From: Haliotis rubra
Lineage: Eukaryota
Length of the DNA stretch: 64,000 nt
Reading direction: 5' to 3'
Assembly: GCF_003918875.1 (NCBI RefSeq)
Contig: NW_025767451.1
Span: 186,001 to 250,000 of the forward strand
A program made the translations under genes and the position numbers. This document shows positions 8,001 through 49,582 of the stretch, one piece after another. The notes beneath the pieces are model-generated. The model made no database searches. It was not told where the DNA came from and saw nothing but the letters and a program-made list of their open reading frames with translations. Position 1 is the first letter of the stretch. Each line of letters begins with the position of its first letter.

Positions 8001-11000
8001 GCATGGGTACTGGAGACAACAAGCATAGGTACTGGATATGACAAGCATGGGTACTGGAGATGACAAGCATGGGTACTGGAGACGACAAGCATAGGTACTG
8101 GAGACGACAAGCATGGGTACTGAGAGACAAGCATGGTACAAGCATGGGTACTGGAGACGACAAGCATGGGTACTGGAGACGACAAGCATAGGTACTGGAG
8201 ACGACAAGCATAGGTACTGGAGATGACAAGCATGGGTACTGGAGACGACAAGCATGGGTACTGGAGATGACAAGCATGGGTACTGGAGATGACAAGCATG
8301 GGTACTGGAGATGACAAGCATGGGTACTGGAGATGACAAGCATGGGTACTGGAGACGACAAGCATGGGTACTGGAGACGACAAGCATGACACTGGAGACG
8401 ACAAGCATGGGTACTGGGAGACAAGCATGGTACTGGAGATGACAAGCAAGGTATGGGTACAAGCATGGGGAGATGACAAGCATGGGTACTGGAGACGACA
8501 AGCATGGTACTGGAGATGACAAGCATGGGTACTGGATGACAAGCATGAGCACAGGATGACTTGCATAGGTACTGGACACAAGCATGGGGTACTGGAGATG
8601 ACAAGCATGGGTACTGGAGAAGACAAGCATGGGTACTGGAGACGACAAGCATGGGTACTGGAGATGACAAGCATGGGTAATGGAGACGACAAGCATGGTA
8701 CTGGGAGATGACAAGAATGGGTACATGGAGACGACAAGCATGGAGGTACTGGACATCAGGTACGAAGCATGGCACTGGAGACGACAAATAGGTACATGGA
8801 GACTGGAGACGACAAGCAGGTACTGGGGGCGACAACTGGAGATGACAAGCATGGGTACTGGAGACGACAAGCATGGGTACTGGAGATGACAAGCATGGTA
8901 GCATGGGTACTGGAGATGACAAGCATGGGTACCGGAGATGACAAGCATGGGTACTGGAGATGACAAGCATGGGTACTGGAGACGACAAGCATGGGTACCG
9001 GAGATGACAAACATGGGTACTGGAGATGACAGACGCATGGGTACTGGAGATGACAAGCATGGGTACAAGCATGAATACTGGAGATGACAAGCATGTAATG
9101 GAGGATGGCTTAAGCAAATTACTGACACAGCATGAGGTACTGGAGACTGGAGACATAGGCATGTTGACAAGCATCGTAATGGGCATGGAGACAAGCATGG
9201 AGTGCTCTGGACACAAGCATAATGGGTACAAAGCATGGGTACTGGAGATGACAAGAATGGGTGCTCTGGAGATGACAAGCATGGGTACTGGAGAAGACAA
9301 GCATGAGGTACTGGGGAGATGACAAGCATGGGTACTGGAGATGACAAGCATGGGTACTGGAGATGCATGGCATAAGGTACTGGAGATGACAAGCATGGGT
9401 ACTGGAGGACAAACGCACCGGGAGACAAGCATGGGTCGGAATGGAGACTGGAAGACAAGAGATGACAAGCATGGGTACTGGAGACGACAACCATGGGTAC
9501 TGGACATGAACATGCATGAGGAGATGGAGATGAATGGCATGGGTACTGGAGATACCAAGCATGGGTAAGAGGAGGATGACAAGCATGGGTACTGGAGACG
9601 ACAAGCATGGGTGCCGGATGACAAGCATGGGTAATGGAGATGACAAGCATAGGTTACATGGAGCATGGCATGGAAAATACTGGAGGACACGACAAGAATG
9701 GATGGGTACTGGAGACGACAAGCATCAGGTAATGGATAGGACAAGCATGGGTACTGGAGATGACAAGCATGGAGACGGAGGACAAGCATGGGATGGAAAT
9801 GAAGGACAGGTATGGAGACTTGACAAGCAGGATGGAGACAGGCATGTGGTAATGGAGATGACAAGGATGACAGGCATGGAGATGGACAAGGAAGGCATGG
9901 CTAATGGATATGACAATGCATATAGGAAATGGAGATGACAAGCATGGGTACTGGAGATGACAAGCATAGGTAATGGAGATGGGACAAGCAAGGTACTGGA
10001 GGATGACAAGCATGGAGGTACTGGATGGACATGGGACTGGAGGATGACAGGACTGGAGATGACAAGAATGGGTAATGGAGATGACAAGCATGGGTAATGG
10101 AGACGACAAGCAAGGCATGGACGGAAGCATGGGTACTGGAGATGAACATGGGTACTGGAGATGAAGCATGGGTACTGGAGATGACAAGAATAATGGATGA
10201 CATGGAGCATGGAGATGGACAATGGAATGGAATGGGTAGCATGGAGACGACAAGAAAATGGGTACTGGAGACGAATGGAGATGGAGACGGTGGAGACGAA
10301 GGCATGGAGAAGGCATGGAATGGAAGGCATGGGTACTGGAGATGGACAGGCATGGAGATGGAGATGGAGCATAGGTAATGGAGGATGACAAGAAATGGAG
10401 GACATGCAAGGAACATGGAGATGATAAAAGCATGGGTACTGGAGATGACAAGCATGGGTACTGGAGACAACAAGCATGGATAATGGAAGGAATGGCATGG
10501 AATGGGTGAATGGATGTGAATGGAGATGGGTACATGGAGCATGGGAGACAAGCAAGGGACATGGAGATGACATGGCATAAGGGACTGGAGATGACAGAAA
10601 GCATGGGTACTGGAGACGACAAGCATGGTGTACTGGAGACGAAGGAAAGCATGGAGATGGACATGACAGGAATGGACGACTGGACATGACAAGCATGGAA
10701 GGACAGTATGGACATGAAGCATGGGTACTGGAATGGAGACAGACATAGGTAATGGGATGACAAGCATGGGTAATGGAGGATGACAACCATGGGGAATGGA
10801 GGATGACAAGCATGGAGATGGGGCATGGAGATGGAGGACAAGCATGGACTGGAGATGACAAACAGTGGAATGGATGGAGGAATGGAGATGACAACAATGG
10901 ATGGGTACTGGAGGATGGAGGGACAAGCATGGAGATAATGGAGATGGACATGGAAGGAAGGAATGGGAACTGGAGACGACATGGAGGACATGGAGTACAT

Positions 11001-14000
11001 GGAGATAAGGACAAGCATGGGTACTGGAGAGGACAAGGAAGGGAATGGATGGACAGAAGCATGGGTATGGAGGGATGACAAGCATGGGTAATGGAGATGA
11101 CAAGCATGGAGATGGGTACTGGAGATGACAAGCATGGGTACTGGAGGATGACAAGCATGGGTACTGGAGATGACAAGCATGGGTACTGGAGATGACAAGC
11201 ATGGGTACTGGAGACGACAAGCATGGGTACTGGATATGACAAGCATGGGTACTGGAGACGACAAGCATGGGTACTGGAGACGACAAGCATGGAGACGACA
11301 AGCATGGGTACTGGAGATGACAAGCATGGGTACTGGAGACGACAAGCATGGGTACTGGAGATGACAAGCATGGGTACTGGAGACGACAAGCATGGGTACT
11401 GGAGACGACAAGCATGGGTACTGGAGACGACAAGCATGGGTACTGGAGACGACAAGCATGGGTACTGGAGACGACAAGCATGGAGGTACTGGAGATGCAA
11501 GGGTACTGGAGACGACAAGCATGGGTACTGGATATGACAAGCATGGGTACTGGAGACGACAAGCATGGGTACTGGAGACGACAACCATGGGTACTGGAGA
11601 TGACAAGCATAGGTACTGGAGACGACAAGCATGGGTACTGGAGATGACAAGCATGGGTACTGGAGATGACAAGCATGGGTACTGGAGACGACAAGCATCA
11701 GGTACTGGAGACGACAAGCATGGGTACTGGAGATGACAAGCATGGGGTACTGGATACATGGAGACGACAAGCATGGGTACTGGAGATGACAAGCATGGGT
11801 ACTGGAGACGACAAGCATGGGTACTGGAGATGACAAGCATGGGTAATGGAGACGACAAGCATGGGTACTGGAGACGACAAGCATGGGTACTGGAGATGAC
11901 AAGCATGGGCTGGAGATGGGTACTGGAGACGACAAGCATGGGACTGGAGACGACAAGCATGGGTACTGGAGACGACAAGCATGGGTACTGGAGACGACAA
12001 GCATGGGTACTGGAGACAAGCATACTGGAGGACAAGCATGGGTACTGGAGACGACAAGCATGGGTACTGGAGATGACAAGCATGGGTACTGGAGATGACA
12101 AGCATGGGTACTGGAGACGACAAGCATGGGTACTGGAGACGACAAGCATGGGTACTGGAGATGACAAGCATGGGTACTGGAGACGACAAGCATGGGTACT
12201 GGAGACGACAAGCATGGGTACTGGAGACGACAAGCATGGGTACTGGAGACGACAAGCATGGAGACGACAAGCATGGGTACTGGAGACGACAAGCATGGGT
12301 ACTGGAGATGACAAGCATGGGTACTGGAGATGACAAGCATGGGTACTGGAGACGACAAGCATGGGTACTGGAGACGACAAGCATGGGTACTGGAGATGAC
12401 AAGCATGGGTACTGGAGACGACAAGCATGGGTACTGGAGATGACAAGCATGGGTACTGGAGACGACAAGCATAGGTACTGGAGACGACAAGCATGGGTAC
12501 TGGAGACGACAAGCATAGGTACTGGAGACGACAAGCATGGGTACTGGAGACGACAAGCATGGGTACTGGAGACGACAAGCATGGGTACTGGAGATGACAA
12601 GCATGGGTACTGGAGACGACAAGCATGGGTACTGGAGACGACAAGCATGAGGGTACAGGTGGCACAAGCATGGATACTGATACATATGATACTAGGGATG
12701 GGAAGCATGGGGTTCTAGCGAAGAGTACTACGAAATACTGAGATCACGTCATTTTGTAAGTATGCAATAACTACTACCAGTCATTTAATTCACTTACTCA
12801 TCGTAAAGGGTGAGGTCGGGAGTCCAGATAGTGTCCTGAGGGACATAGATGGCGTCAGTTCCATCGAAACGCGATGGGTTCCACTGAAGTCTATGATCAG
12901 TCCAGTTCTGCAAAACATATCATATTGCTACTAGAATCTTAAGAAATCCGCTTTTGGAGAAATCATGGAATGTGATCGGACACACAGCCCTCATTCCCCC
13001 TGGATATCTAACATGTACTTTGAACGATTATCGTTTTCGGGTGAAGCGCAGTGCAACTCAATATCAGTATATTCGTGCAGAAAACAAATATCTTACCAGG
13101 CGTATCCACAGGTTGGTTCTCAGAATCTGCTTTGTCTGGGCCTAGAAATACAGAATTTGTATAGAAAAGATCGGTACAGGACAACATCAACGCTCTGCCA
13201 CCAAGCAAACCCATCGTCCTGCTTCACACCACCATCCATGAGACCCACCATTTCACTTCGCTGTCCCGACAACCCGGCCAATCAAGACACGTCCCCCACA
13301 CCTCAATATCACACCACCTCACTACACTGCTAGACACCCTACCACCTCATAGCCTTGCCACCCTAGTATGTCGTTATCCCGCCACCCTAGTATCTCGTTA
13401 CCCCGCCACCCTAGTATCTCGTTATCCCGCCACCCTAGTATCTCGTTATCCTGCTACTCTAGGATCTCGTTATCCCGCCACCCTAGTATCTCGTTATCCT
13501 GTATCTCCCTCCACCCTAGTATCTCGTTATCCCGCCACCCTAGTATCTCGTTATCCTGCTACCCTAGGATCTCGTTATCCCTGCCACCCTAGTATCTCGT
13601 TACCCCGCAACCCTAGTATCTCGTTATACTGCCACCCTAGTATCTCGTTACCCCGCCACCCTAGTATCTCGTTATCCTGCCACCCTAGTATCTCGTTATA
13701 CTGCCACCCTAGTATCTCGTTATCCTGCCACCCTAGTATCTCGTTATCCTGCCACCCTAGTATCTCGTTATCCTGCCACCCTAGTATCTCGTTATACTGC
13801 CACCCTAGTATCTCGTTATACTGCCACCCTAGTATCTCGTTACCCCGCCACCCTAGTATCTCGTTATACTGCCACCCTAGTATCTCGTTACCCTGCCACC
13901 CTAGTATCTCGTTATACTGCCACCCTAGTATCTCGTTATACTGCCACCCTAGTATCTCGTTATCCCGCCACCCTAGTATCTCGTTATCCTCGCCACCCTA

Positions 14001-17000
14001 GTATCTCGTTATCCTGCCACCCTAGTATCTCGTTATACTGCCACCCTAGTATCTCGTTATACTGCCACCCTAGTATCTCGTTATACTGCCACCCTAGTAT
14101 CTCGTTATCCTGCCACCCTAGTATCTCGTTATACTGCCACCCTAGTATCTCGTTATACTGCCACCCTAGTATCTCGTTATCTCGTTATACTGCCACCCTA
14201 GTATCTCGTTATACTGCCACCCTAGTATCTCGTTATACTGCCACCCTAGTATCTCGTTATACTGCCACCCTAGTATCTCGTTATCCTGCCGCCCTAGTAT
14301 CCCGTTATCCTGCCACCCTAGTATCTCGTTATACTGCCACCCTAGTATCTCGTTATACCCTGCCACCCTAGTATCTCGTTATCCTGCAACCCTAGTATCT
14401 CGTTATATCTCGTTATCCTGCCACCCTAGTATCTCGTTATCCTGCCACCCTAGTATCTCGTTATACTGCCACCCTAGTATCTCGTTATCCCTGCCACCCT
14501 AGTATCTCGTTATCCCGCCACCCTAGTATCTCGTTATACTGCCACCCTAGTATCTCGTTATCCCTGCCACCCTAGTATCTCGTTATCCTCCTGCAACCCT
14601 AGTATCCTCGTTATATCCTGCCACCCTAGTATCTCGTTATTATAGTCTCGTTATGCCACCCTAGTATCTCGTTATCCTGCCACCCTAGTATCTCGTTATC
14701 CTGCCACCCTAGTATCTCGTTATCCTGCCACCCTAGTATCTCGTTATCCCGCCGCCCTAGTATCTCGTTATCCCGCCACCCTAGTATCTCGTTATCCTGC
14801 CACCATAGTATCCTGTTATCCTGCCACCCTAGTATCCCGTTATCCCGCCACCCTAGCGTCTCATTACCCCGCCACCCTAGTGTCTCGTTACCCTGCCACC
14901 CTAGTATCTCATTATCGTACCAACCTATCTTCAGGCGACGACACTATACACAGTATTGTTTCAATTTCTTTGGGTACTTGAGGTTCCGTTTTCCTAACGA
15001 ATGCTACGACTTACATAAGTTTCAAAGTGTTTTTGTCATGAAGTTTTCTGAAGACATCTTCTTACCAGATCAACAACTTGCCTGATCGCCAGATCCAGAG
15101 TCACCTCCACACTCTGGTTGTTCCCAGGCCGCGGACTGACTTCCCTCTGGTAAGATTCCAGTAACGACCCCAACAGGTTGCCTACACCGACGAACTTATC
15201 ATAATGATCATATTCCACATCACATTGTGTAATCCAACATACGACGTGGAAGCCAACTTGTTTTATCTTAACAGACATCAACAACTAAGTGAGGTTCGTA
15301 TTTTACCTGATTTACCTGCTTTCATTACCTGTACTCAGCATTGACAAACGCATGGGAATTCAGATAAACTTCACTCTTTTCTTTATTTCCTTATTCCGGA
15401 AATGATGAACAGTACCCCGTGCTTGCTTGTCGTCTCCAGTTCCCCATACTTGTGGTCCCTAGTACCCCATGTCTTTCCCCAGTACCTTTTGCTTGTCTTC
15501 TCTAGCCCTTATGTTTGTCATCCCAGTACCCTATGCTTGTAGTCAGTGCCAGTGTGTGTTTATTTAGGCCCATGATACAGATATTGTGGTACATATATTT
15601 GTTGTATACAGAGAGCTTGAAATGATGGCTCGCAATTATAATAGATGTATTTATACATGAGTAACAGCTTTTACAAAATAAATGCATTGAAATTGTTTAT
15701 CTAAGAGGGACATCTTCAAAGAACATTCGTCTTTTCTTGGCTGCTGAAAAAAGAAATTTACAGAGATTTCTCAAGATCACACCTTTTGAGAGAAATACTG
15801 CTGGCATCTTATCCGAAGTTGGATATTCCCAATAGTATTTTGGAAGAAGTGTATATCTTAGATTATGATAAAAGGGGCACTTTAAACAAAAATGGTACTC
15901 GGATTCAATGTTTGGGACAATACAGAATGGACATAATCTTTCTGATCTGGGAATATTCCACCTCGAACTCATGATTTGAACAAATAAATCTGATGAAATT
16001 TGCAATGTAAACTTTAACTGTTACAGTTTCGAGTATATTTGAGTAGCTAAACTGATTATTAAGAGTTCTGTAGAAATCGAACTTCGCGAAACCATTTCTG
16101 CTATATCAATACACCTTTCCTTAAACTGAGAGATAAATAAAACACTATTTCCTACACCTTGTTGTAGCCAAACTTCACCAAAACCATAACTGAATAATAA
16201 TGATTTAACGTTTAATGCCCAACAAGACTTGCCGTTTTCAGCTTTTCGATACTGAAAATTATAGGAGTGCTTCAAAATCACATTGTCGGCTTGCGACAAT
16301 AACGAGATACCAAAATTTGATTATTTTGACATAGTGAAAACCTTTAACATTAGGTCTACCTAAAATACCACGAGCTTACAACATTGGAGTACCTCTATTT
16401 AACGATAACATTAATTTATCATGAATACCTTCAATATCAGGCGATGAGTGAAATCCCCAAACTTCGGAACCATAAGTAAGACTAGGAAGAACTTTAGTAT
16501 CGAAAATATGCTCAGCAACGTCATGCGGAAGAAAGAGAATTTACCTAATTTTGACATTAGCAACTGCAATACCTTCCAAGCCTGTTGGGCCAGAGTTTTC
16601 TGGGTTAAAAACCAAGACCCTGACGATGACAACTGGACACCTAAATATTTATAACATCCAACCACTTCCATTTTGGAGCCACTCAACCAAAACTTTTCAC
16701 ATGAGCGTAATCTACCGCCGTTACGGAAGACCATAACTTTACTTTTAGCAGTATTGATTGCTAGTTTCCATTTATCACAATATTCTGATAGTAAATTTAA
16801 TCTTTTCTGCAAACCAACAACACTTATATCCATAACTGCAATCTCGTCAGCAAACAGAAGAATAAATATTTCCCAGAATGCCAAAGTTACACCATGTTGT
16901 CCCTCATAAGACATATGCTCGACAAGATCATTGATGAAAAGAGGAAACAGCATCGGGGACATCTGACAGCCCTGTCTTACTCCCTACTACACTGGAAAAA

Positions 17001-22394: not shown

Positions 22395-22559
22395 GACTGA
22401 CTGAGTTTGGTTTTACGCCGCTTTTAGCAATATTCCAGCAACATCACGGCGGGGGACACCAGAAATGGGCTTCACACATTGTACCCATGTGCGGATTCGA
22501 ACTAGGGTCTTCGGCATGACGAGCCAACGCTTTAACCCCTAGGCTATCCCACCGCCCCG
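22395..22559 (-). mobile_element. tRNA-derived SINE (same family as 5853)
   Basis: Reverse-complement homology to 5853-6018 over its full length. Confidence 0.85.
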
Positions 22560-23578: not shown

Positions 23579-25634
23579 GAGCACAAAACACATTCACTTA
23601 AATAAAAGTTTATTCATGAAATTTGTCATACATTTTAAGCAAAAAGGAACACATACTGACATGATCATACCTGGGTTGACATTGACATCATGATGCTCAC
23701 CGGAAGGTGGGTTGTTATCATAGGGACTCGGAATCAGCATCAAGGGCACTTTAGCAGACACATCTCACTGAGTTGAGAGAACTTCCACACAATGTGGCTA
23801 CCTAGAGGCCAAACAATGATGATGATCAATATCTGACTTGCCTAATTGTCTGTCCCCCAAAGTTCAATGAGTAATAGCTTAAATGTTGGCGATATGAAAC
23901 TTCTTCTCCTGCATCACCCACATGCTAAATATTGCCATTACGAGAGAACACCTACAGATTGGAAATTAAGACATTCTCAATAATAAGGCCATGAAGCAGG
24001 TTCAAAATGACATAGACAGAAATAAGTCAAATTGCACACAATGATTGAGGGACACAAGTCTGAAAGGGTAAGATTAATGACAAAAAACATTCTGTGGACT
24101 TTATTTTCAGAGAGCATACACAAATTATTTATTACTCTAACTTGTTACTGTCGAAACCAAAGACAGTATAACAGCTCATTTAGGTCCTGTACCTCTGTAC
24201 CACAGCTAAATCATTTAAGGTCACAACTGGGAATGGGGGTTCTAGGAATCTAGTTGGTTCTGGGGTCCCAACATCAGACAAATAAAAGGTACCTGTCGTT
24301 CTTAATCAGGCAGATGGATTACTCCCTCTCTACTCCTGACTCCTATCTCTCTAAGACTGAGTATGGTACTACTGCCTCGTGACTGTTCCTGTTATAATGC
24401 CCAAAGTCAGCTGGCATTATGCAGCAATACAAGTTTTGACCAGGCAAACCAGGAGTCAGTAGTAATGATCCACCACAGGGCAGTGGGTGCTTCAAGTATG
24501 AGGAACAGAATCATTCAGAACACACTTGAGCATGGTGGATTTAAACACCACCTCCCAACCAATATAACCTTTCACATGTTCAACTGACTCAAGTAACAAT
24601 TTCTCTAACAGATGAAAATAACCTTAAAATAACTTTTCTTACAAAGAACCTCTTTATTCTTGTCTTGTTTTAAGAATTTAAGTTGTGGTGTCAACTCTGA
24701 CGTGTGAATAACCTCCCAGCAACCCAGTGTAAATGCCATGTATAGAGGAAATCTGTTCTGTTTGAGACTCCAACATGAGATGATGTAAACATGTTATCTG
24801 ACACAACATGTGTTCTTGTTATAGCATCACAGGGTAGATTAAAGGCAGCAGGGGGATTAAGTGCTGTATCACTTGGGCAGAGATTTTGATTTGATACTTT
24901 CAGACCCCCATTTTCCATAAGAACAAGTACACAAGCATACAGAGGATACAGTTATTATCCTCCATGAATGTGGTTTAGCCCTCAGTGTCAAACATATAAC
25001 CCATCAGGTTGGCATTCATAGCAGTTTCAGAATATACTGAAACAGCTGGAATTATGACAAAACAAATGAAAACAATCGATTTTTTAGCCACATATATCTT
25101 GAAAGATTAGTTCTTAGGCCAACAGAATTACTCAAAACAGGTTCTGTTACAGTTTTATCTTTGAGTTTTCCTCTGTGTTGTAATGATTGTCTGGCAGGAA
25201 AACAATCTGCAAAACATATTTTAAAACTTTTCTAATTTTGTTGATTTGAAATTTGTGATTTCTTTTTCAGTCCTTAATCTGCCTCAATCTGAAAAATCCC
25301 TTGGTTAAATAATAATTTCTCTCTGGTAGAGGGACCACAGTGTTTCAATCATTCCATCACTGAACGGAAACAGTATTAAAGTCAAGCCTCTGAAGAGTTC
25401 TCTCCCATGGATAATTATATAATTACTTGCTCTTCAGAACCTGATAATGAGTTTTGATACACACCAAATGTCATATGTAAATACAATGTCCTTGACCCTT
25501 AACAATATTGAGACATTAGATGTGTAAGACAGTAACAATGCCAATTTGTAACAGGTTTTATCATCTGTTCATACAAATAACAGCATGCATTCATAGAGTG
25601 AAACTTCTGAATAAGAGACATTTGAAGGACAACA

Positions 25635-28600
25635 CTATGCAAGAGCTGTCTTTGCTGCTTCCAAAATCTCCTTGGCTTGTCCAAATTCCTCTCTTTCTGA
25701 TAAATCACTCTCTTTTTGCTGCAAAGAAAAACAAAAAGTCTCCTTGTTAAACATGATAATCAAGAATCTGAAAAGTTGGAGTTAGATCTAAGCTGGACAA
25801 AACAAAATCTCATTTTGCAATTCTTTTCACGTGGAATCTCATTATAACCCAATTTTCAATCTTTCAATGTTGCCCCATGGAATGAACATAGTTGAATCAC
25901 TGAAGTAGCCATGTGTTAAAATGTTTGCTCATCACGGCAAAGAGCAGGGTTCGATTCCCCAATTCTGGTGTCCCCTGCCATGATATTGTTAAAAGAGGTC
26001 TAAAACTAAAGTCACTCACATAGTTAAATCTGGCAAACAAGTTGTTGAAGGTGTGAGCAACACTGTAATTCACATGATTAATTGCTACACCAATTATCAC
26101 TATCAGGGAAACACCTGGCATTAGAACTGTGGCCAGAGGGTAAAAGTTAGCAGAGGCCAATGGCATTACATACATCTGGGCAGGGTCATTGACCCCTTCA
26201 AACACACATGTCCCTCCCTTTCTGGATAAAATGTATCCATGGCCTAAGTAACAGCGGTCCATGACCCTATATTTCTGAACAAAATGAGCTTCATAATGCA
26301 ATATATCCGACCAATATGAGCAATAAACCTACTGCAATAAACCTCACAGCAACTGTATACATCTGACGAAATATGAACTTCATAACACTTTGTGTCTGAC
26401 CAATACTGTTCCATCATACTATATTTCTCATCAATAAATACTTGGAGCTATTTCTGAACTATATAAGGCTCCATAATGCTATGTAGCTGACTAATACTGT
26501 GCCATGACCCTATATTTGTCAACAATGTACGATCCATGATGCTGTAGTTTATAATATCAATATATAATCTGTGGCTAAATATTTTCAACACCAGGTCCAT
26601 CATTTTAGTGCTACTGGGCCACTTATGTCATAACTATCTCAGTCATAATCATGATAAAGAAGCTCTATGTTAATTTTAATGACTGTGTTATGGATGAACT
26701 CACAAGTATCTGCTCCAGCTCTTCGTACGCTGTCTTCAGCCTCTTCTTCGTGTCCGGGATCATCATACGGGACTCCTGCAGAACCTCAGTCTGTAACCAT
26801 GGTAACAATCCAAGTCACATACGTCCAACAGTCACATGTGTCAAGTTAGAGAAGGTATGGGCTATTACTATTCCTCACCCTCACACTTATCAATAACCCC
26901 CCGACAGGACAGCAGCCTGAGCATGATCATGTCTGGACCAGGCTACACAGAGACTGATACTCAGTACGATGATACACACACTGGGTACAATGACCATTCG
27001 AGTCGGACCATTTGGTTGCTTTATACAATAAGCAGGAATCAGGCAAAAACAGAATTGTGCAACTTCAGGAAGACTGAAATGAACAATTCAGGGGCTGTGA
27101 AAGCGCATTTTGATATACTGTACTGTTCTAAGTAATCTGATTGGGTGCAATGTTATTTTAATTAGTGGAGTTATTTGGATTCACTTACTTGAAAAATATT
27201 GCATCAACTAAGACCCCGTATGAAAAGGCTAGCATTTCACAAAATTGTTGAGTCAAATACGCTGGAAATTCATGTGTTATGTATGACCCTGCACTGTGTG
27301 AATCCAAAATCATGTCCTGTAACTGAATTCTCACAGTACTGCATGGTTCAGTGACAGAGACAACAAGAGCAGTAATACAGGAGTAGTATAGGGAATGATA
27401 GTTTCGGACCAGGTCCCTATAAGTCATAATTTTTACGATCCATTGCCCCTGTGGGAGTAAAACATATTGTTTGAATGATTGTGCACCAAGAAGTGAGTGA
27501 ATATGGTTTCACGCCGCTTTTAGCAATGTTCCAGCAATATATCACGGCGGGGTACACCAGGAATGGGCTTCACACATTGTGCCCATGTGGGGAATCAAAC
27601 TCAGGTCTTCGATGTGACGAGCCAACGCTTTAACCATTAGGCTGCCCCACTGCCCCATGAACAAGCAAGAGAAATTGAGATACCAGGATTTAGAGATGGA
27701 TTCGCTTGGAAGAGTGGAATAAAGAAGCCTTAAAATCTGTAGGGCACCATGAGTTTCTGCAACCCAAATGCAATGGAACCAAAAAGCCCAACGTTTTGAG
27801 ATTTTCCATTTAGACATTTGGTGCCCAAGCAGGTATACAGCAACCTATCTGTATTTCCAGAAAAATGGCAGTCGAAGCAACATAAATATGGGCATTGCGA
27901 GACAAAAAAAGGGGTGGCATACCACTCCTACTGGAAAATATTGTGGGAAGCAATCTTCTACCCGACATTGCCCGTGTAGACTATCTCGATGGCAATCTCG
28001 TCAAAACAAATCTCCAACCACTGGAAGGTCTACCTTCATTTGTGGACGATATCTATGTATTTGGCTATCTTCGACGAAAAGACTGTGTCTATAGAAAAGG
28101 AGATGTGTATTGTATCCTTGTATTGTAGTTTCCAACATAGCGAGTGCAGTACGCGAATCTTTCAAGGGGGCTTTTGTCATAGCTCGTAGAGCCTTTTGGA
28201 CCCGATACCGAAGCTCTTTTTCACCTTGGCTGCTGGGAGCACACCGCAAAGGGCGCGAATTTCGTTGATCTTGTCGAAGGACAAATCTCTTTTTGGTGGC
28301 ATGGTGTTTTTTCCCTGGGTATATATATCCCATACTTTTCTATATGTCTATATGGAAATCCCATCCACCCTACATGTCTATTTGGGAATCCCAATCCTCT
28401 CCCATCCTCCCTACAAACCCAGGAAAATACCGCACAGAACTGGGAATTTGCTAGACTTGCCAGACGTTTCCTAGATTTGCCAGACGTTTGCCAGAATTGT
28501 CAGACGTTTGCTAGAAAAATGATTTTTCTATGCCGATGGCGTTTATGGCCTTTCTTTCTCGCCATTTGAAAGCAACTCGTTTGTTCGGGGGTAGCATCGT

Positions 28601-31600
28601 ATCTGGATTTGGACCTTGGGAATGTAGCTGCATCAGCCTACGACTTTGAGATAGTATAGTTCTCGTATGGGGAGCTTTTGTGTAGCATCGTAGTGGTCCT
28701 ATTTCTACTCCTGTAGGTGTAGCGGCTAAAATGTCAACTCGAAATAGAGGACATGCCCGGAATCCAAAATCGGCTGTAGCCCATTCTACGGCACAGTTCC
28801 ATCGAGCATCGTCTTCTACATTGGCTTTGGTGGGTTGTACTTGGATTCCGGATACTCTTCCCGTGCACATGTGCTGCATGTGCGCATACCAACACACAAA
28901 GATAGTCCCCTGGGGTCTGTCCGCAAGCACCATGCAACGGTCTAGACATTTCGATAGATTCTCCCACCTCTTTGCCGGTGGTTGTACGACGAATAGGTTT
29001 TCTCCCAAGAATAGCTCTAGTGCTTCGTCTAGCAAATTGTCGGCCAGTGCTGTGTTGGTCCTGTGCGTGTACAAAGAAACCTCTATGCGAGTACAACCTC
29101 TACTCTGGACATCTGGATGGAGAAAGGGTTTCTGAGATGTTCGTTGGAACAGTCCGCATAGTCGGCTAAATGGCCACCGATGTGTTCTCGTAGTTTTCCG
29201 GCTTCGAATTTAGAAACTACTTTGATGTAGATTTTTGTTGGCATGGTATAGCCATTCCAGGTTCCAAACCCAAGTACATACTTGGTTGCCTACACTACCC
29301 GTATTGTCTAGAATGGTAGGCCCTCGCAGTCCATGGCTGTTGCAAGATCTCTTTGTTTTCGAAGGTTGTGTCTCTTTTGGAGGTATTCCATGAGACTCTT
29401 TCTATCTAGGGTGCTGGAGAAATCCCTCGTATAGTCGATAGAATACAGTCCATGGCCATGTGCCAATAGGAATCGTTCGAATTTGAAAACACTGGCTTGT
29501 ATTTGCTCCATGGGTATTTCCGAGACATCCACTTTTGCCACGACTATTCCGAATATCAGGTCATCCAGGTAGAGATTCCCATTGTGTCTTAGCCGCAGAA
29601 TTGGTTTCTTTCTCGATTCTTCGTACAGTGTACCGTATTGCAGAGGGGGCATCTATGGCATATTGTAGTGTATGCAAGATTTTCGTTTGCACGTAGCCCT
29701 CCTCTAGCTCGAAAGATTCACGTACTGCACTCGCTATGTTGGCAACTAAAACGGATGCCTTTCCTTTTTCTCCGATGGTGCAATACACATCTCCTTTTCT
29801 ATAGACACAGTCTTTTCCGTCGAAGATAGCCAAATACATAGATATCGTCCACAAATGTAGGTAGACCTTCCAGTGGCTGGAGATTTGTTTTGACGAGATT
29901 GCCATCGAGATAGTCTACACGGGCAATGTCCGGTAGAAGATTGCTTCCCACAATATTTTCCAGTAGGAGTGGTATGCCACCGCTTTTTTTGTCTCGCAAA
30001 GCCCATATTTTGATAAGTTGCTTCGACTGCCATTTTTCTGGAAATACAGATAGGTTGCTGTATACCTGCTTGGGCACCAAATGTCTAAATGGAAAATCTC
30101 AAAACGTTGGGCTTTTTGGTTCCATTGCATTTGGGTTGCAGAAACTCATGGTGCCCTACAGATTTTAAGGCTTCTTTAATCCACTCTTCCAAGCGAATCC
30201 ATCTCTAAATCCTGGTATCTCAATTTCTCTTGCTTGTTCATGGGGCGGTGGGGTAGCCTAATGGTTAAAGCGTTGGCTCATCACATCGAAGACCTGAGTT
30301 TGATTCCCCACATGGGCACAATGTGTGAAGCCCATTCCTGGTGTATGGAAATACAGATAGGTTGCAAATGTCTAAATGGAAAATCTCGAAACGTTGGGCT
30401 TTTTTGGTTCCATTGTATTTGGGTTGCAGAAACTCATGTTGCCCTACAGATTTAAGGCTCCTATAACGTAAGCTCAAATTTCTGGTTTGCCCAAACAACG
30501 GTTCCGTTTTCGAGCACGACTCTGCTAGATCTTTCTCCTTCCCACTTACTCCAACCTATAATCTTTGCCGTTTTTCCTGCTACGACGGGTTTTTTTTCTG
30601 TACGCCTCCTTTGCAGAAAAGAATCCGCTCTTCCAAGCGTATCCATCACTAAATCCTGGTATCTCAATTTATCTTGCTTGTTCATTTTCGTTATACTTCT
30701 AACAATATCCTAGCTCTAATACATTTTTCACGTATAATTTTACAGACGTCAAATGATGGTCCACCATCGTTCAAACAATATTTTTTACTCCCACAGGGCA
30801 ATGGATCGTAAAAAATATGACAGAGCAAAGTCAACATAGCCGAGCAATGTAATAGAAAAAACTCTATCAGGGCTGTAAGTAATTTACAGACAGGGGAGAT
30901 AACCTGAGAAAAATCACTTCCATGTGTCCATAGTTTTCAATTTCTTAAAGATACATCAATTGTAAATGTATTTCTGTGGAACACTATCATACCCAGAAAC
31001 TCTCCTGATGTCTTTTGTTGACTAATAAACATGGCCAACACTGCCAAACAATCCTTATCACATAGACTGTACGCTGTTCTTCCAAACTGGTAAAGTATGA
31101 GGAGGGTCAGATTTTTATACCACACTTTTTCAACAAGTTATTCAAGCATTCTGTCTAATATAACCCAAAAAACATTACTGATTGGTAGGCTATCCACCAA
31201 GAAGCAAAGTGAAAAAGGAACACACGCATCAAATATATTTGTCTGTTCATACGTAAAATAATTAGGGGATAATACACTAATGTGAGGCAGGTAACTAACT
31301 ATTTGAAATGTTAGGGGCAAGCCAACCGCCCTGCGATACTTCACCTGTTTCCGGATATCATGCTCATCAGCTCCGTCATCCTTCAGCTTGTTGACCCGTG
31401 CCTCCAGCGTCTCCACCTCCTTCTCATACATCGACTTCTCTTTTGTCAGTCTGCCACAGAAACCACAGCATTAAAGTGTTATATACAACAACTCACACAA
31501 CACAGTGTGACATTTGCATTCGTGACAATGTTTTTGTTGGCTGTTGCTGTTTCTAGCAGGACGATGTGTTTGCCATGTTCTGTATGTATTAGGCAAACAC

Positions 31601-34600
31601 TTAGTCTCTGAAAATATACGATTGTGATGGAAATAAAGAACTGCATTTACTTTAGAATTAGAAAGAAGCCCCGGCTTTACCAGTAAACTTGGGCTTGCTG
31701 GATTGAAACAATATGACAGACTATATATCTTTATTAAGTATGCCTTTCTAAGCCATTCTGTTGATAGCACTTTAATGAACAATGTTGTGGTTTGTTCATT
31801 GTTTCTAGAGAATGTTACTGGTGTTATACCTGTCAAATGCCTTTGCCTAAGTCTGAAATTTTGGTTCAATTGGGGAGAAGTGGGGTTTGACTGATATGGT
31901 TGGATAGCGTACCAACCCAACACTCTTATGACATAAAATAGTTATACTTATTTTATTTGTCTCTCTTTCAGAAGTGGTGTTTAATGTCTGAATACTTGGT
32001 AACCAAGGAAATCATTAAACTTTGCAAAACTTCAGAATACTAAAAACTGTTGTTTTTATTTCTTCTAAATGGAAGATACTCCACTATTACTTTTTATTTT
32101 GTGGAAAGGGCCACTATCCAAGGCATATCAATCATTCATATTTTATTTTTACCCTCTCTCTCTCTCTCTTGCACACTCACGTTTGCATACATACAATCTA
32201 TAAACAATGAGTAATTTGTGTATTTTATCTATGAATGCTAGGGGCCTCCAGTCTGATTCGGTAAAGCGAAGGGATATTTTCAGTTTCCTAAGAAAGAGAA
32301 AATCGTCTATTATATTTCTTCAAGAGACACATAGTACTTTAGAAAATGAACAGCAATGGGCAGCTGAATGGGGCTATAGATGTTTTTTCTCACATGGAAC
32401 AAGTAATAGTGGGGGAATATTAATTTTGATTAAAGATAATTTTGAATATGAAGTTCATGAAACAATTTCAGATGACAATGGTCGCTTTGTTATACTTGAC
32501 ATTACAATAGAAAATATTTGATTTTCGGTAACAAATATATACGGACCAGATAAAGATTCGCCAGATTTCTTCCAAGATCTCTTCTCGGAATTAGAACAAT
32601 TACCCGGGGCTATTATTTGGGGTGGGGATTGGAACGTAGCTCAAGATTATTACTTAGATACCTATAATATAAAGCACAGAAATAATACTGGGGCATTTGA
32701 GAAAACTAAGCTATGGTTGGTTGATCCGTGGAGAATTTTTAACCCAGATAAACAACAATATACATGGCGACAAGGCACCGACATTAAACAAAGCAGACTG
32801 GACTATTTCCTTGTCTCTGAAGAAGTTATGTCCCTTGTCAAGCGCGCGTCCATAGATGTGAGTTACAGGTCCGATCATTCTATCATTTCACTTGAGCTTG
32901 CGCTGGGTCCCATGTTAGCGTGGACCGGGTTACTGGAAATTCAATTCGTCCCTACTCTATGACCGTGACTATGTCAATCTTGTTAAAGAAACCATACGTG
33001 ACACTGTCTCTGAATACTATGTCTCTGGAGATTTGGATAACTTAAAAAGTATTGAATTATCAGCGAACGATCAATTATTTTTTGATATACTTAAAATGAA
33101 TATAAGAACTAAAACTGTAGGGTATTCAATTAAGCGAAAAAAACAAAATGAAAAAGAAGAGAAAACGCTGGAACGTGAAATATATGAAATGGAAGCCAGA
33201 TTTTCAACATTAAGTAGTGATGAAAATATAGATTTATGCTTCAAAAAGGAAAAACTTGAAATATTAGAATTGCTAAAGTAAAAGGGCTTATATTTCGGAG
33301 TAAGGCTAGATGGTACGAAGAGGGAGAAAAAAAACCGAATACTTTATGAATTTAGAAAAGAGAAATTATATCAATAAAAATATGGGTGAACTTATAACAC
33401 CAAGCACAGTTCTGACAAGACATATTAAGAGAATCTTCCAACTTTTATAATAATTTGTACAGAAGTAAACATGCAAGTGACTGCCAAAATGACATAGATT
33501 TTTTCAAGAATATCGATGTTAAACTTTCAAATGATAAACGCGGATTTTGTGAAACTGAACTCACGCTTGATGAATGTGCACGAACATTAAAAATATGAAG
33601 AACAGAAAAAGTCCTGGTTTGGACGGTTTTCAGTGCAGAATTTTATAAATTTTTCTGGAATGACATAGGCGTAATTCTCTGGCAATCTATCACATATTCA
33701 TACAAAACGGGAATTTTGTCGGATTTCCAAAGACAAGGTATAATTACATGTATACCAAAAGACTTTCGTGACAGACGCTATTTGAAACATTGGTGACCAA
33801 TTAGTCTTTTAAACGTAGACTATAAAGTTGCATCCGCTGCAACTGCTTCACGATTTATTTAAAGAAGTCCTTCCTGATATAATAAGTGGAACGCAAACAG
33901 GGTTTAAAAAAAATAGATTTATTGGGGAAAATACTAGAATACTGTATGATTTAATGCATTATTGTGAATAACATGAAGTACCAGGTCTTTTGGTTGCAAT
34001 TGATTTTGAGAAAGCATTCGATACAGTTGAGTGGGACTTCATTGACAAAACGTTGGAAGCCTTTAACTTTGGCCCTGTACTTAAAAATTGGGTTAAACTT
34101 TTTCAAAGGAATAGCTGTAGCTCTATTGTCAATTCTGGTACATTATCAGACTTTTTCACTTTAGGGCGTGGTTGTCGTCAAGGCGACCCGGTTGCCCCGT
34201 ACATCTTCGCTGCTTGTGTCGAATTACTAGCTATTGAAATTAGAACAAATAAGAACATAAAAGGAATTAAAATAAAGGCCAGGGTATGGAAAACCTCATT
34301 TTTCAGTACGCAGATGATACCAATTTTACACTTGAAGGATCTGAAAAGGGATTATCTGAACTTAGCTATGATATTAAAATATTTGCTGCCGTGTCTGGTT
34401 TAAACCTCAACTGTGATAAAACCATAGCAATATGGTTTGGTTCCAAGCGAAATTCTAATGAGCAACTCTGTCCGCATATACCTCTTCGTTGGTCGAAAGA
34501 ACCATTCAAAATTCTGGGTATTATTTTTTCAACTAACTTACATGAAATGATTTCACTAAACTTTGAACAACAATTTTCAAAAATTAGAAAAATACTATTT

Positions 34601-36778
34601 TCATGGTCAAACAGATCTTTAACTTTGAGAGGCAGAATTATGATTATCAAATCGCAGATTATCCCCTTTTACACATCTTTTCATGGCGCTTCCTAACCCA
34701 TCTAAGAGCTTCTTTAAACGTTTGAATACTATCCTTTTCAGGTTTATCTGGGGCGACAAACGTGATAAAATTAAAAGAAATATGTTGATAAATGACTATG
34801 AAAAGGGGGGTTTGAAAATGATAGATATCATATCTTTTTGCAACTATATGAAGATTAAATGGATCAGCAGATTATTCAAAGCAAAGGGATTATGGCAGCA
34901 CTTAGTATTTCAAACACTATCGCCTTTTGGGGACATTGATCTCTTTAACTTTCAAGGAGAATTTTTTTTATCCTACTCCAAAAATATTAACAATCTGTTT
35001 TGGAAAGATGTTGTAGTATGCTACAGTTGTATCAATAAAACACATACTGAATGCATTAGTGACTTTATATGTCTACCAATTTTGAATTTTGTACCATATA
35101 CTGATATAGGTCTGTTCGTTTCATGGTATAAAAAAGGAATGAACAATATGCGAGATATTATAACAGACGCTGGTGAAGTGAAACCTTTTCTAATACTAAA
35201 AGAAGAATTTAATCTTCATGAAACATATCTCATATATTTCAGATTTTTGAGAAACAATAAACAATACCTTAATCTTGCTAAGGCAACGCCTCATTATGAT
35301 GAATTAGCCGATACTGACTCTACTATTCTTAAACAAGTATGTAACTCAGCTGACTGTAAATTTGTCTACTCACATTTATGTGATAATCACACAATATCAT
35401 TGGATAATCTTCAACTCAAGTGGGAATCTAAGCTTGATACTGTTTTATCCGATACTTATCTTGCTGACTGTTTTACAATGATTAACGTTGTTACCATAGA
35501 AAATAAGGCTAGGAACTTTCAATTTAAAATAATGCACAGAATAGTCTCAACGAAGTCATTTCTTTGTAAAATAGGTATAATCAGGGTGACATTTGTACTT
35601 TATGTGGCAGAGAAATAGAAACACTCGAGCACTTATTCTTTTTATGTGAGAAAACTAAGCAAACTGGTACAAATTGAAGACTGGTACTCGCCTCAATATT
35701 GATAGCACAAAGTTTTTACTGGGGGACCCTGAGGCAAGTGTATTAGTGAATCACATTTTTATCATTATCAAGCAATATATCAATAAAACAAGATATACCT
35801 CAGCGGAATTAAATTTCGATCAACTTTTTTATTTTATAAAACATCACTACCATTTGGAAAAATATATCTTTGGTGAAGATCACTCAGATTTCAAAAGAAA
35901 ATGTTTATGTCTCTTTCAAAATGATTAAACTAACAAATTGACATAGTGAGGTTTTCTAGGCCGCACTCTTTCATCTTTTCTTATCTCTCTTTCCTTATCT
36001 CTCCTTTCTTTCTTTCCCATCTTTATAAAAATTTTTTACATATTTTGTGTATGTAACGCGAGGTAAAAAAAGGAAAAGAAAACAGCAGAATACAGGCTTC
36101 CACCATAAATTTAAAAAAATGTTTGAATCCGGAAAATGTATACTGTATATACTCGTGAAATGCGTTTTCTGTAATATTTGACTAAATAAAATAAGAAAAA
36201 AAAAAGAAAAAAAAAAGTTGGAAAAGAAAGTCAAAGATAAACAGTATGAACCTTATTTATATTTAGACGTGCATCATTTTGATTCTAGATGGATGAGTCA
36301 CAGGTTTTATCGAGAGACAAGTCACCATGTCAACCCTTCTTTCAGCATCTTATTGTAGAGATACTGAAATTGAGTGACAAAAAGAGCATACGCTGGCTGT
36401 AAATTGCAAGAAAATGGTTGTCATAACACTCTAACTCTAAGAAAGGGAAGAGCTCTATCAAACTGTCAAAAACGACTTTTGATAATATCAATTATTTTAA
36501 CGATTGCTATACCGTGCTAATACTGTCGTAGATATTGTCTGCCAACGAGCTCAGGACACATCGGTAAGACAACTGACGCTATGAAAGCAGAAATCACAAA
36601 TATATACGACCAAACACCCGTGGTAACTGACCTCTTGTTTACACAAGCTGATGTCATGTTGAATCAACGCACGACATTCCACATTTGCATTATACTGCAT
36701 GCATAAAAAGAACGTTAAAACTCGCCTTTTCACAACTCCAGTCCTGATCTTGATTTGCTTTATTCTCTGGTCATCCAT
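25635..36778 (-). CDS. TBCA: Tubulin-specific chaperone A; exons 36726-36778, 31345-31450, 26704-26790, 25635-25718 (109 aa)
   Basis: Spliced product MDDQRIKQIKIRTGVVKRLTKEKSMYEKEV...DIRKQTEVLQESRMMIPDTKKRLKTAYEELEQILQKESDLSEREEFGQAKEILEAAKTALA matches the TBCA family; exon sizes 53/106/87/84; intron 1 uses a GC donor. Confidence 0.93.
27493..27656 (-). mobile_element. tRNA-derived SINE nested in the fold-back element
   Basis: Homology to 5853-6018; a 3'-truncated inverted twin lies at 30242-30345. Confidence 0.85.
28177..28302 (-). pseudogene. Small HTH-like ORF (MPPKRDLSFDKINEIRALCGVLPAAKVKKSFGIGSKRLYEL*)
   Basis: 41-aa ORF with a helix-turn-helix-like pattern (V.K.FGIGSKRLY); TATATATA ~20 nt upstream; broken by a stop next to the inversion breakpoint. 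Confidence 0.5.
28511..30685 (-). pseudogene. Frameshifted large intronless ORF with Rep_trans-like motif order (putative rolling-circle initiator)
   Basis: Joining frames gives ...YSIDYTRDFS...PTILDNTGSVGNQVCTW...TKIYIKVVSKFEAG...IGGHLADY...FLHPDVQSRGCTRIEVSLY...; family assignment is by motif resemblance only. Confidence 0.55.
32050..36216 (+). mobile_element. L1/Tx1-clade LINE (ORF2 from 32207, frameshifted, poly-A tail) in TBCA intron 1
   Basis: SMNARGL...FLQETHS, SRLDYFL and SDHS endonuclease motifs; DFEKAFD, GCRQGDP and QYADD RT motifs; CTLC..ETLEHLFFLC knuckle; A-rich tail at ~36190-36216; empty site in the duplicate at ~52775. Confidence 0.93.
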
Positions 36779-37458
36779 CGTATTATACGGTAATAGGGTT
36801 GTAAGTCAAGTTATTCAAAATGCACACTCGAATGTTCGTCGCCGACCGGTGAAGTTGTGAAAAAATGTGACTGGGCTGGTTCCTTGACACGGAAATAGCT
36901 CTTCAGTCAGAGACGCCGGTCACGGATAGAAATATAGCCAATCAGCATTGAATTTCGTCATGTAATTGGTTTGACCAGTTATGCCTTTCTACGCACTGTC
37001 ATCTATGCGCTCTTACAGAAATCAGTAGACAGGATCCAAGTGTTGCTAATATGATAGAATTTTTTCTACAGGGTTGTGATTGCCTCTTCATCCAATGAAA
37101 CACAAAATCTATGAAAGAAATACCGTACAAATTTGTTCAGAGACCTTACCTACAAATTTTGGTCCATATGTATAGTGTATGTTAGTGTAAGTGTCCACGT
37201 ATAACGCCTAATGACTCATTAGAGATTTACTCATATTCAACCTTCTCTTCGAGCCCCAAACGACCAGCCGCGACAGATAACATGGAAACCAGTCTACAGT
37301 GTCATACATGCGCAGTACGATTCTTGGGTAACTAAGGTATACTTCCGGCATGTGCTTGCTGGATGTGAACTGAATGCCCGACACATCTGTTTAGATTTCT
37401 CAATAGGAAGGACATGAATAACACCCGTGTTGTTATTTATTCTGTATTATCCTAACCA
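36779..37458. promoter_or_regulatory. Putative bidirectional promoter between TBCA and the NAT8-like gene
   Basis: Head-to-head starts 680 bp apart; AGCCAATCAG and ATTGG CCAAT boxes (~36937-36968), TGCGCA (~37309) and ACTTCCGG ETS-like site (37341). All are retained in the duplicate (53525-54065). Confidence 0.55.
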
Positions 37459-38130
37459 ATGTCATCAGGTGTGCACATTCGTCAATGGACAGAAAAAGAC
37501 GCTTCAGGCACTTGGGAGGTGTTAAAAGAGGCAAGCTTCAGTAATCTGTACCCTTCTTTTAAGATCGCTATTTCTAGACCCGCGTCAATCAAACTCGCTT
37601 CTGTCGTTGCCCTTGCTGCAGGAATTGTTTTACAGTCATTTCTAGCGGTTACAGTATCCCTTGTTTTCTATGTGTGCGCTGTGTATGGGTTCAGCTTCTT
37701 TGGCACATTGTACTACTTGTATGGCCCTACTCATTGTGACATGAAAAATGCACGACAAAATTATTTCCGCGACGAAGACGACAATTTTTGGATTGCCGAG
37801 GTTAACGGCGAGATTGCAGGAACAGTCGGGATTGTGAAGAAAACAGCTGGTGACACAGAACGTAAAGTAGCATGGCTGAGACGAATGGCGGTGAAACGGA
37901 ATTTCAGACGTTTAGGAATTGCCAAGAAGTTGGTTTCCACGGTGATCTCCTTTTGTAAACAACGTCACTACGACAAGATAGAACTGATTACGACGGAGGT
38001 GCATCAGCCAGCGAGGAATCTATACTCGAGACTAGGCTTTATTATGGTGGGCTATAAACCCTATAAATATCTCCAGGGGCTGATATCGGTCTGGACATAT
38101 GAGTTTGAATACGAACTGAATGAAAAATGA
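37459..38130 (+). CDS. NAT8/camello-like GNAT N-acetyltransferase (single exon, 223 aa)
   Basis: N-terminal IRQW..D, hydrophobic segment, FWIAEVNGEIAGTVG, LRRMAVKRNFRRLGIAKKL acetyl-CoA motif, ARNLYSRLGF. Confidence 0.88.
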   Translation: MSSGVHIRQWTEKDASGTWEVLKEASFSNLYPSFKIAISRPASIKLASVVALAAGIVLQSFLAVTVSLVFYVCAVYGFSFFGTLYYLYGPTHCDMKNARQNYFRDEDDNFWIAEVNGEIAGTVGIVKKTAGDTERKVAWLRRMAVKRNFRRLGIAKKLVSTVISFCKQRHYDKIELITTEVHQPARNLYSRLGFIMVGYKPYKYLQGLISVWTYEFEYELNEK

Positions 38131-47290: not shown

Positions 47291-48401
47291 TACTTCCACA
47301 AACGATACTGGTATTCCAACACCCAATCTTAACATTCCCAAACAACCAACACCAAGAAAGTCAGCAATTTCAACATGCCTCCAAAAGAAGACATTATTCA
47401 GGAAACGGAAAATAACCTTAAAATAACATTTTCTTTCAAAGAAACTAGAAACTCTTTATTCTTGTCTTGTTTTAAGAATTTAAGTTGTGGTGTCAACTCT
47501 GACGTATGAATAACCTCCCAGCAACCCAGTGTAAAATGCCATGTATAGAGGAAATCTGTTCTGTTTGAGTCTCCAACATGCGATGATGTAAACATGTTAT
47601 CTGACATGTGTTCTTGTTATATCATCACAGGGTAGATTAAAGGCAGCAGGGGGATAAGTGTTTTATCACTTCGGGAGAGATTTTGATGTGATACTTTCAG
47701 ACCCCCAATCTCAATCAGAACCAGTACACAAGCATACTATTTTCTAGCATACAGCCAATAACAGTTATTATCCCCATGAATGTGGTTTACTCCTCAGTGT
47801 CAAACATATAACCCATCAGGTTGGCATTCATAGCAGTTTCAGAATATACTGAAACAGCTGGAACTATGTTAAAACAAACAATAACAATACATGGTTTAAG
47901 AGGGCGATTCCCAGCACTAATTGCACATACACACACACTTAATATGAATCATGATTGTCCTGTTTTTGACCATGAACTTTATCTGTACTCAGAATTCGAG
48001 AATCCGACATCCTCGCTAATCCGACAATTTGCTGTGCAACGGACGATGTCGGATTAACGAGACTTGACTGTATATTTTTTAGCCACATATATCTTGAAAG
48101 ATTAGTTGTTAGGGCAATAGAATTACTCAAAACAGGTTCTTATCTTGAGTTTTCCACTGTGTTGTAATGCTTGTCTGACAACAAAATTAATCTGCAAAAC
48201 ATTTATTCAAAACTAATTTTATGGATTTGAAATTTGTGATTTATATTTTAGTACCTTAACTCTCTGTAGGGAGGGACCGCAGTGTTTCAATCATTCCATC
48301 ACTGAATGAAAACATTATTATACTCAAGCCTCTGTTCAAGAGTTCTCTCCCTTGATAAAAATAAATAACTACTTGCACTTCGAACTGAACCTGATAATGA
48401 G

Positions 48402-49510
48402 TAGGGCTGCAACGATTCACCCACACCTCGATTCGATTCGATTTTCGTTATTGGACCCTCGATTCGATCGAATCGATTCTTCATCGAAACATCAGACTTC
48501 ATGTAAAATCATCAAATTTCATTTATCTCTCCGAGTCGGCTTGTTTAGCGTGAAATCCATCGTCAACTTGGCGGGGTTATCTCCCATTTGACAGACACTG
48601 AACTAGAGGTTTAATCAGGGTAACACCTACGGGTATAATGGACACAACACCACTGTCTTGTGAGTAGAGCAGTGTGAGCCTAAAACAGGTTCGTTTCTGA
48701 GAAGTTTGATAGTGTGTAAATAGAACTTTGTTTTTCTTTCACGTGGAAATTTTAAATTATGCAACAGAGTCGCAATTTCTAATAGCTGAGGGAATATTAT
48801 TCCACATTTTAACTGCTGATGGAATATATGATGATGTTGAGTACTTCAGTCTTGTACATGGTTGACTCAAATTATTGGAGATAGCTTGTCCAGTTGCCTA
48901 CTGCAGGTGGGTGTAAATCCTAAAAAAACCCTGGTGTTGTGCTATTTAGTAGGAACGTTTTTTTTATCTTTTTTTTTATCATTGGTTCCCAAGATTAAAA
49001 TATTTCAGATATACAAAGCCGTGATACATACGGCTTAAAGTAATATGGTTACATGATGTACAGGTGTACAGGTAGTAGGAAATTTAGTTTTTGAAATGCT
49101 CAAATAAGTTTAGATGACTTTTAGACAGTGTTTTTGATATGATGCCGGAAGGTCCCGTTAGATGAGAAGGTTAAACCCAAATGTTTATGAAACTGTTTGT
49201 ACATTGCAGCAATCAAAGTTCATATTAATGTCTTTTCGGCCATCTTTTAAAGTAAATATTATAGCTCCAATTTGTTTCTTGTTTTTATTTGGACTATTCC
49301 ATTGCAATGTGTAGGTAACAGGCAGTAGCTAATCTGTTCATTGAACCGTAAATGTTTTAAGGCGCCTGCGAAGTGTGTGTGTGTGTAATGGGACGACACC
49401 CTTGGCGATGTCTACTAACAACAATTATCATTGGGTAATTAGCCCGCAGTTAACCAATCCCGTCTCGCATTATTTCAGCGCTCTGCTTTGTGTGTGTGTG
49501 TAGGCGTCGA

Positions 49511-49582
<72 letters not shown>

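Follow-up and report, generated by a model that had tools for sequence, protein, structure and literature searches.

We have analysed a 64,000-nt window of the Haliotis rubra genome (GCF_003918875.1, contig NW_025767451.1, positions 186,001-250,000, forward strand), in which an intron (26786-31345) of a minus-strand TBCA gene, recognised by its splice sites and a Pfam TBCA match (E 2.8e-11), contains a broken gene that we term Rep-like for its resemblance to Rep_trans-type nickases. The element to which this gene belongs is real and multicopy. The window probably holds a decayed copy of an element capped by the ends of Polintons and likely to be a Polinton satellite, whose Rep-like nickase would join a fixed sequence, J, to cut Polinton strands and so borrow the termini, polymerase and integrase of a helper. 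We lean slightly towards regarding it as a new class of eukaryotic element, comprising the first animal branch of Rep_trans-fold nickases and a promiscuous Polinton hyperparasite acting by "terminus snatching".

An earlier note on this DNA had described an intronless gene within an intron, which is correct, and had envisaged the relic of a mobile element or virus with a Rep_trans-type nickase. Mobility is borne out; what the note missed is the link to Polintons. The element is capped by Polinton ends with 5-bp target-site duplications (TSDs) of Polinton type, and is likely a dependent satellite rather than a free-standing rolling-circle element.

Element structure, Polinton termini and the junction J

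Searches of the 1.38 Gb host genome assembly gave 45 DNA matches (in 40 of 132 candidates scored) and 131 protein matches (in 122 of 411 candidates scored), spread over several subfamilies. The module reads J, Rep-like gene, convergent open reading frame ORF3, ORF2 and inverted J, with the Rep arm often duplicated as a large inverted repeat. All nine loci picked for paired hits have two convergent gene copies in inverted arms that are 94-98% identical (blastn), and long Rep-containing arms occur in 4 of 12 loci not picked as pairs. A metagenome contig with a single Rep gene has inverted ends of 138 bp only, so that the long palindrome, though common, is not required. The region between the arms holds ORF2 and a conserved ORF3 of ~95 aa (for example L116:3267-3641), the latter convergent with Rep in several animals. 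Neither ORF2 nor ORF3 has a Pfam match, and no capsid-like match was found for Rep, ORF2 or ORF3. A 940-bp Rep-less derivative, present as a tandem duplicate in L111 (C557; ~5145-6085 and 8664-9605), has J at both ends and a different Polinton piece on each side.

The outer ends of the element read AGTAGT...ACTACT. Looking for copies, termini and TSDs in the host, as the earlier note proposed, thus revealed a multicopy element with defined ends and mostly 5-bp TSDs (among 17 candidates, 12 exact 5-bp, one 6-bp, one ambiguous and three unresolved). The same AGTAGT termini bound host elements of 6-15 kb, which we identify as Polintons because their ORFs match DNA_pol_B_2, rve, Pox_A32 and, weakly, Capsid_N. 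That the Rep gene might be an accessory gene of a known Polinton had also been considered; it is absent from all seven Polintons with matching termini, six of which have 5-bp TSDs. Comparison of 13 two-ended Rep elements with host Polinton markers found none that matched PolB, ATPase or capsid; rve sequence turned up in two, solely inside captured ends. The terminus shared by the Rep element C2099 and C2530 is 100% identical over 119 nt. The arms of C2099 differ by 0.13%, indicating recent activity of the element in this lineage.

The sharp inner boundary J (TTATAGG/TTACTAG; 30179 and 27719 in the window) is common to all copies. Terminus and J are separated by 0.17-2.5 kb of Polinton subterminal DNA, which may come from either Polinton end, stops at variable points and meets J at T-N-(A/G) sites. 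We recognised 36 distinct junctions, of which 18 were strictly mapped, giving 13 distinct sites after duplicates were merged. At these sites the Polinton continuation has T at +1 in 13/13 (background 0.30, p 1.4e-7) and A at +3 in 10/13 (p 6.6e-5), with G in the remaining three, whilst T is found at +2 in just 4/13 (p 0.57). Adding three blast-resolved sites and both window junctions gives T at +1 in 18/18, A at +3 in 14/18 and T at +2 in 7/18. A preference at +3 without a match at +2 fits enzyme recognition better than template switching. The best J mimics in Polintons have been used repeatedly, by both J subtypes. At every mapped junction the polarity is the same, with the Polinton terminus on the 5′ side and J on the 3′ side, in agreement with the prediction from the 5′-phosphotyrosine chemistry of Rep_trans enzymes. 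A recheck of 13 unmapped junctions found an AGTAGT motif within 1.5 kb in 11, and neither terminus nor Polinton match in two. Another animal has a fixed TTA junction in 8/9 contigs with four different sequences upstream, two of them PolB-coding DNA cut 45 nt apart; the one readable target there continues TAAA. In L147/L148 a perfect ~124-nt AGTAGT hairpin lies 5′ of Rep.

The captured ends come from several Polinton families. Those of the window derive from a second family, represented by an element (C1624) with the window-type terminus and rve, PolB, ATPase and capsid matches; those of L069 come from a third, PolB-only family, and D768 has a different family on each side. The same Polinton end and junction occur on both arms in C2230, C968, C608, C24 and the window. 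Unlike ends are found in C441, C1150, C2771, C2109, C890 and C557.

Several further features of the host Polintons were observed. The genome is very rich in Polinton-type DNA_pol_B_2 (at least 142 matches, many in open frames of >1000 aa). Host Polinton termini fold as ~116-nt hairpins (L023:5047-5166, L031:2658-2777 and others; z -3.9 to -9.6 in 5/5 copies), and C441 has one inner loop in opposite orientations at its two ends, recalling the flip/flop of parvoviruses. PolB-only mini-Polintons (C446, C540, C551, C625, C2121, C2311, C2512, C2756 and C1030; L096-L103, L106) are ~5-6.5 kb long with terminal inverted repeats of ~290-390 bp and mostly 5-bp TSDs. A 48-bp tract resembling J is found at position ~131 and the divergent ORF2 pair recurs, but Rep is missing; in the three examples looked at, without a formal search, we saw neither an integrase nor a capsid ORF. 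Their ends have been captured by Rep modules (L069, D768).

The Rep-like protein family

The largest window fragment matches 72 longer proteins and the family profile matches 144; at E<=0.001 there are 1042 representatives (50% identity). Full-length members are ~860-960 aa long. Named members are those of Elysia crispata, Nematostella vectensis, Actinostola and Porites lobata. Pattern scans of GTDB and IMG/VR returned no relative. The predicted architecture is a TBP-like catalytic domain followed by a coiled coil and two OB-like folds, the catalytic domain being built on a curved β-sheet whose top structural match is TBP. The predicted catalytic Tyr267 lies on a β-strand (E227-234 of the domain model) within an (R/K)-x-Y-x-K motif (K265 95/98, Y267 98/99, K269 97/99) that hhalign pairs with the Tyr motif of RepSTK1. 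Candidate acidic ligands, D53/D54 (84/86), D197 (93/96) and E316 (94/96), are each placed on a predicted strand. The nearest ESM neighbours are Rep_trans/Phage_CRI families (similarity 0.92-0.93), which we treat as a lead only. There is no HUH Pfam match in members and no HUH protein among the fold matches listed.

Fold, language-model neighbours and residue conservation together support the identification of the main gene product as a Rep_trans-type tyrosine nickase, with nicking activity predicted from the model. Four observations weigh against this assignment. The motif I Arg is absent, with Ser/Cys there in the alignment; motif II (T/S-x-Y-x-G) is matched loosely at best in the alignment; Pfam PF02486 (Rep_trans) and PF05144 (Phage_CRI) matched 0/37 members; and hhalign against a Rep_trans-type profile gave E 0.05, no better than controls. 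The earlier reading is partly borne out: a mobile element with such a nickase is supported by fold, ESM neighbours, conserved residues, multicopy dispersal with TSDs and the absence of the gene from all seven Polintons compared, whilst the profile comparison suggested with it gave no significant match and the motif I Arg is lacking.

Comparison with the Rep_trans/Phage_CRI and MOBT enzymes (RepSTK1, RepD/E, inovirus gpII) shows a similar predicted TBP-like sheet and, as far as the available text of PMC4797284 describes them, the same order on β-strands of an acidic N′, D-x-x-x-D, Y-x-K and R-x-E (MOBT motifs are also described in the available part of PMC6499999). The animal family differs in having only ~10-15% identity, in its Glu after Y-x-K, which lies three residues further on, in its fusion to a coiled coil and two OB-like folds, and in its location in nuclear DNA. 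The accessible portion of PMC13107129 (2026) describes Rep_trans as bacterial and Rep-Arvir as an archaeal branch. Like our family, Rep-Arvir appears there as a distant Rep_trans-fold family visible by structure and not by sequence; by its description it has a winged helix-turn-helix and circular replicons, where the animal proteins have OB-like domains and linear Polinton-capped forms.

The copy in the window and its surroundings

We set the limits of the window gene by scoring each frame separately against an intact relative. It runs on the minus strand from an ATG at 30033 to ~28521 and matches aa ~1-510 of 863-aa relatives, the C-terminal coiled coil and OB-like domains being deleted (Table 1). 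The motif fragments quoted in the earlier note are present on this strand in separate frames, and the frameshifts it reported at 29100-29320 are found as breaks near 29320, 29260 and 29130, with others near 29560, 29815 and 29970-30000. A short-read contig is identical to 28977-29309 (0 differences), so the two breaks within that interval are real DNA rather than long-read error; a second contig spans the deletion at ~28510-28525. Substitutions between the window open frame and other copies number 796 at third positions vs 452 and 307 at the other two, counts that are not independent.

Other proposed limits have to be revised. A unit of ~600 codons had been drawn from 30685, but that ATG belongs to a small Polinton ORF in the right captured end, and 30034-30821 comprises the module leader, two J junctions, dispersed repeat and a Polinton end. 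The element, formerly begun at 28511, reaches further left, to 27382. The small ORF (window 30461-30709; L217/C1624) resembles the first OB-like domain of the Rep protein (hhalign E 4e-5; tblastn E 1.3e-6). It may encode a Polinton single-stranded DNA-binding protein, the similarity hinting that helper and satellite have exchanged genes.

Table 1. Parts of the element copy in the window
Feature	Position	Strand	Evidence or remark
Left outer end, captured Polinton terminus starting AGTAGT (E1624-type family)	27382..27493	+	41 matches
Dispersed ~163-bp repeat within captured end, resembling a short interspersed nuclear element by eye	27494..27656	-	more copies at 5853-6015 and 22398-22558
Captured Polinton end DNA adjoining J	27657..27718	+	93.5% to L061
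Left inverted arm: J and first 0.45 kb of module	27719..28166	+	inverted match to right side
5′ remnant of ORF2, small central gene; helix-turn-helix-like by eye	28167..28302	-	ATG 28302; aa 9-53, E 1.8e-11
Central spacer remnant, 20-bp tandem repeats at 28447-28516	28303..28520	.	spacer comparison
Rep_trans-like gene broken by 6 or more frame changes; covers aa ~1-510 of ~860	28521..30033	-	frame-by-frame comparison
Module leader, fixed junction J1 at 30179; Polinton target continues TTAT	30034..30179	-	
Captured Polinton end DNA (30180-30241) and part of dispersed repeat (30242-30345)	30180..30345	-	mirrors 27553-27718
Remnant of second module start, J2 at 30466; Polinton target continues TTAA	30346..30466	-	
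Right captured Polinton end	30467..30821	-	89.7% over 359 nt to L061

The window copy, 10-12% diverged from other copies, is an older, doubly deleted member of the family. Its left arm retains a 5′ stub from another copy of the Rep-like gene, convergent with the first (aa 13-76 at 27925-28116), and the inverted match between 27553-28166 and 29708-30345 extends over 638 nt at 93%. The dispersed repeat, which has no Rfam match, is mirrored in both arms, and arm copying would therefore have come after its insertion. The spacer at 28169-28363 resembles that of C441 and C1150, and 30365-30466 is 85-93% identical to the module starts of other copies. Because the right Polinton end lacks its outermost ~41 bp, the TSD is unreadable. 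In L062 (C2094), a copy of a divergent Rep subfamily, the 3′ part adjoins the window-type Polinton terminus.

Elsewhere in the window, 24600-37700 and 47400-54400 are two copies of the TBCA region, with near-identical exons and introns 74-93% identical, representing either a duplication or an uncollapsed haplotype. A decayed L1/Tx1-like retrotransposon lacking long terminal repeats, with endonuclease and reverse transcriptase motifs recognised by eye, lies at 32204-35928 (+), and large satellite arrays of 22 bp and 24 bp units occupy 6820-12679 and 13356-14927, with strong GC skew of opposite sign.

Proposed mechanism, alternatives and meaning

In the mechanism we favour, Rep would nick at J (T^TAY or ^TTAY) and stay on the module 5′ end through its Tyr. 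At a relaxed mimic of J in single-stranded Polinton DNA it would make a cut, or capture the 3′-OH of the strand, and ligate this strand to J. The inverted arm could then fold back so that the stolen end is copied to the other side, giving identical ends; a second capture in place of fold-back would give unlike ends. Starting at the Polinton termini, helper pPolB would amplify the hybrid, which the rve integrase of the helper would insert with a 5-bp TSD, and each join, by recreating J, would leave the ends exchangeable again. If this is true, the element attaches to J, covalently, protein-primed termini taken from any Polinton family that happens to be active, and so acquires replication, integration and perhaps packaging although its own genes provide none of these.

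The main rival, which we consider rather unlikely, is a transposon of rolling-circle type whose targets are relaxed TNAY sites in Polinton DNA, end capture being a by-product and the capped forms arising secondarily by deletion or gene conversion between inverted insertions, then spreading as non-autonomous Polintons. It predicts the same junction consensus, and would account for Rep copies in or beside long Polinton tracts (D42, D2222, D2811, D2137, C2682) and for junctions without a Polinton end (C2099 right, C1335). However, in reading host loci, without a systematic test, we noticed no clean insertion flanked on either side of the module by one and the same Polinton; an identical end and junction on both arms, as in the five copies listed above, is not expected from two independent insertions; and a single element can carry ends of different families.

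It is improbable that the copies are defective-interfering Polinton derivatives formed by pPolB template switching, the 860-aa protein being a non-catalytic TBP-fold/OB-fold DNA-binding accessory. TBP as top structural match, the Polinton ORF resembling an OB-like domain of Rep and the 6-kb PolB-only elements with J-like sequence and ORF2 are all in keeping with this, but annealing would not be expected to yield junctions that are invariant on the module side, biased to T-N-A in the target and unmatched at +2, nor are Tyr, Lys, Arg and acidic residues conserved at 97-99% in Rep_trans order, or the absence of the gene from all seven Polintons, readily reconciled with it. Lower still we place an origin as the endogenised segment of a linear plasmid or single-stranded DNA virus, hairpin-ended like parvoviruses or bidnaviruses and replicating by itself through a rolling hairpin, to which the PolB-only element would be the partner. 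The terminal hairpins, the inverted C441 loop and the shared J and ORF2 would suit it; against it, the hairpin termini are those of host Polintons (C2099 vs C2530) and differ among copies, no capsid gene was seen, and IMG/VR gave no match. Already disfavoured and scarcely credible is the idea that the assembly of long reads created the palindromes artificially, the gene being an ordinary pseudogene. The assembly has many indels, in Polinton ORFs included, but the copies lie in different flanking sequence and have exact TSDs, several carry a left junction unlike the right one, the window breakpoints are confirmed by short-read contigs, and related anatomy occurs in other animals.

The proposed satellite shares with Polintons/Mavericks the termini and 5-bp TSD of the host Polintons. 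It differs in that the module is without pPolB, integrase, ATPase and capsid, and in having as its ends variable-length pieces of several families attached at one fixed joining point. Some copies may, we presume, stand in Repbase or Dfam as non-autonomous Polintons. Polinton TSDs are given as 5-8 bp in the available part of bioRxiv 10.1101/2023.08.22.554363, and other Polinton features are described in that of PMC6431247. If the model holds, the attachment of an invariant 5′ end to the 3′-OH of a target, at a short motif used in one orientation, would recall IS91, Helitrons and Replitrons as the accessible text of PMC10288648 and PMC5714925 presents them; the predicted non-HUH fold, the Polinton DNA target, the integrase-type TSD at the chromosomal insertion and the inverted J ends on both sides set our element apart. 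In those portions, PMC10288648 treats Replitrons as HUH elements and makes no mention of Rep_trans, and PMC5714925 has Rep_trans enzymes forming a 5′-phosphotyrosine, resolvable by a free 3′-OH.

Our literature search, with Repbase, Dfam and paywalled papers outside it, found neither a Rep_trans element in eukaryotes nor a comparable Polinton satellite. Transpovirons, virophages, satellites and defective-interfering genomes rely on a larger viral element for replication or spread. The present element would share that dependence, but apparently takes the helper's own termini covalently, in place of encoding or mimicking such ends itself. In the junctions we see signs of a form of parasitism on a virus-like transposon that is undescribed in the literature we found. 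If the assignment is right, an animal Rep_trans branch (mollusc and cnidarians) would complete the three domains. The proposed nick site, target motif and catalytic Tyr are precise enough to be put to a simple test in vitro. Polinton replication is largely known from sequence alone, and each junction would record a single-stranded Polinton intermediate.

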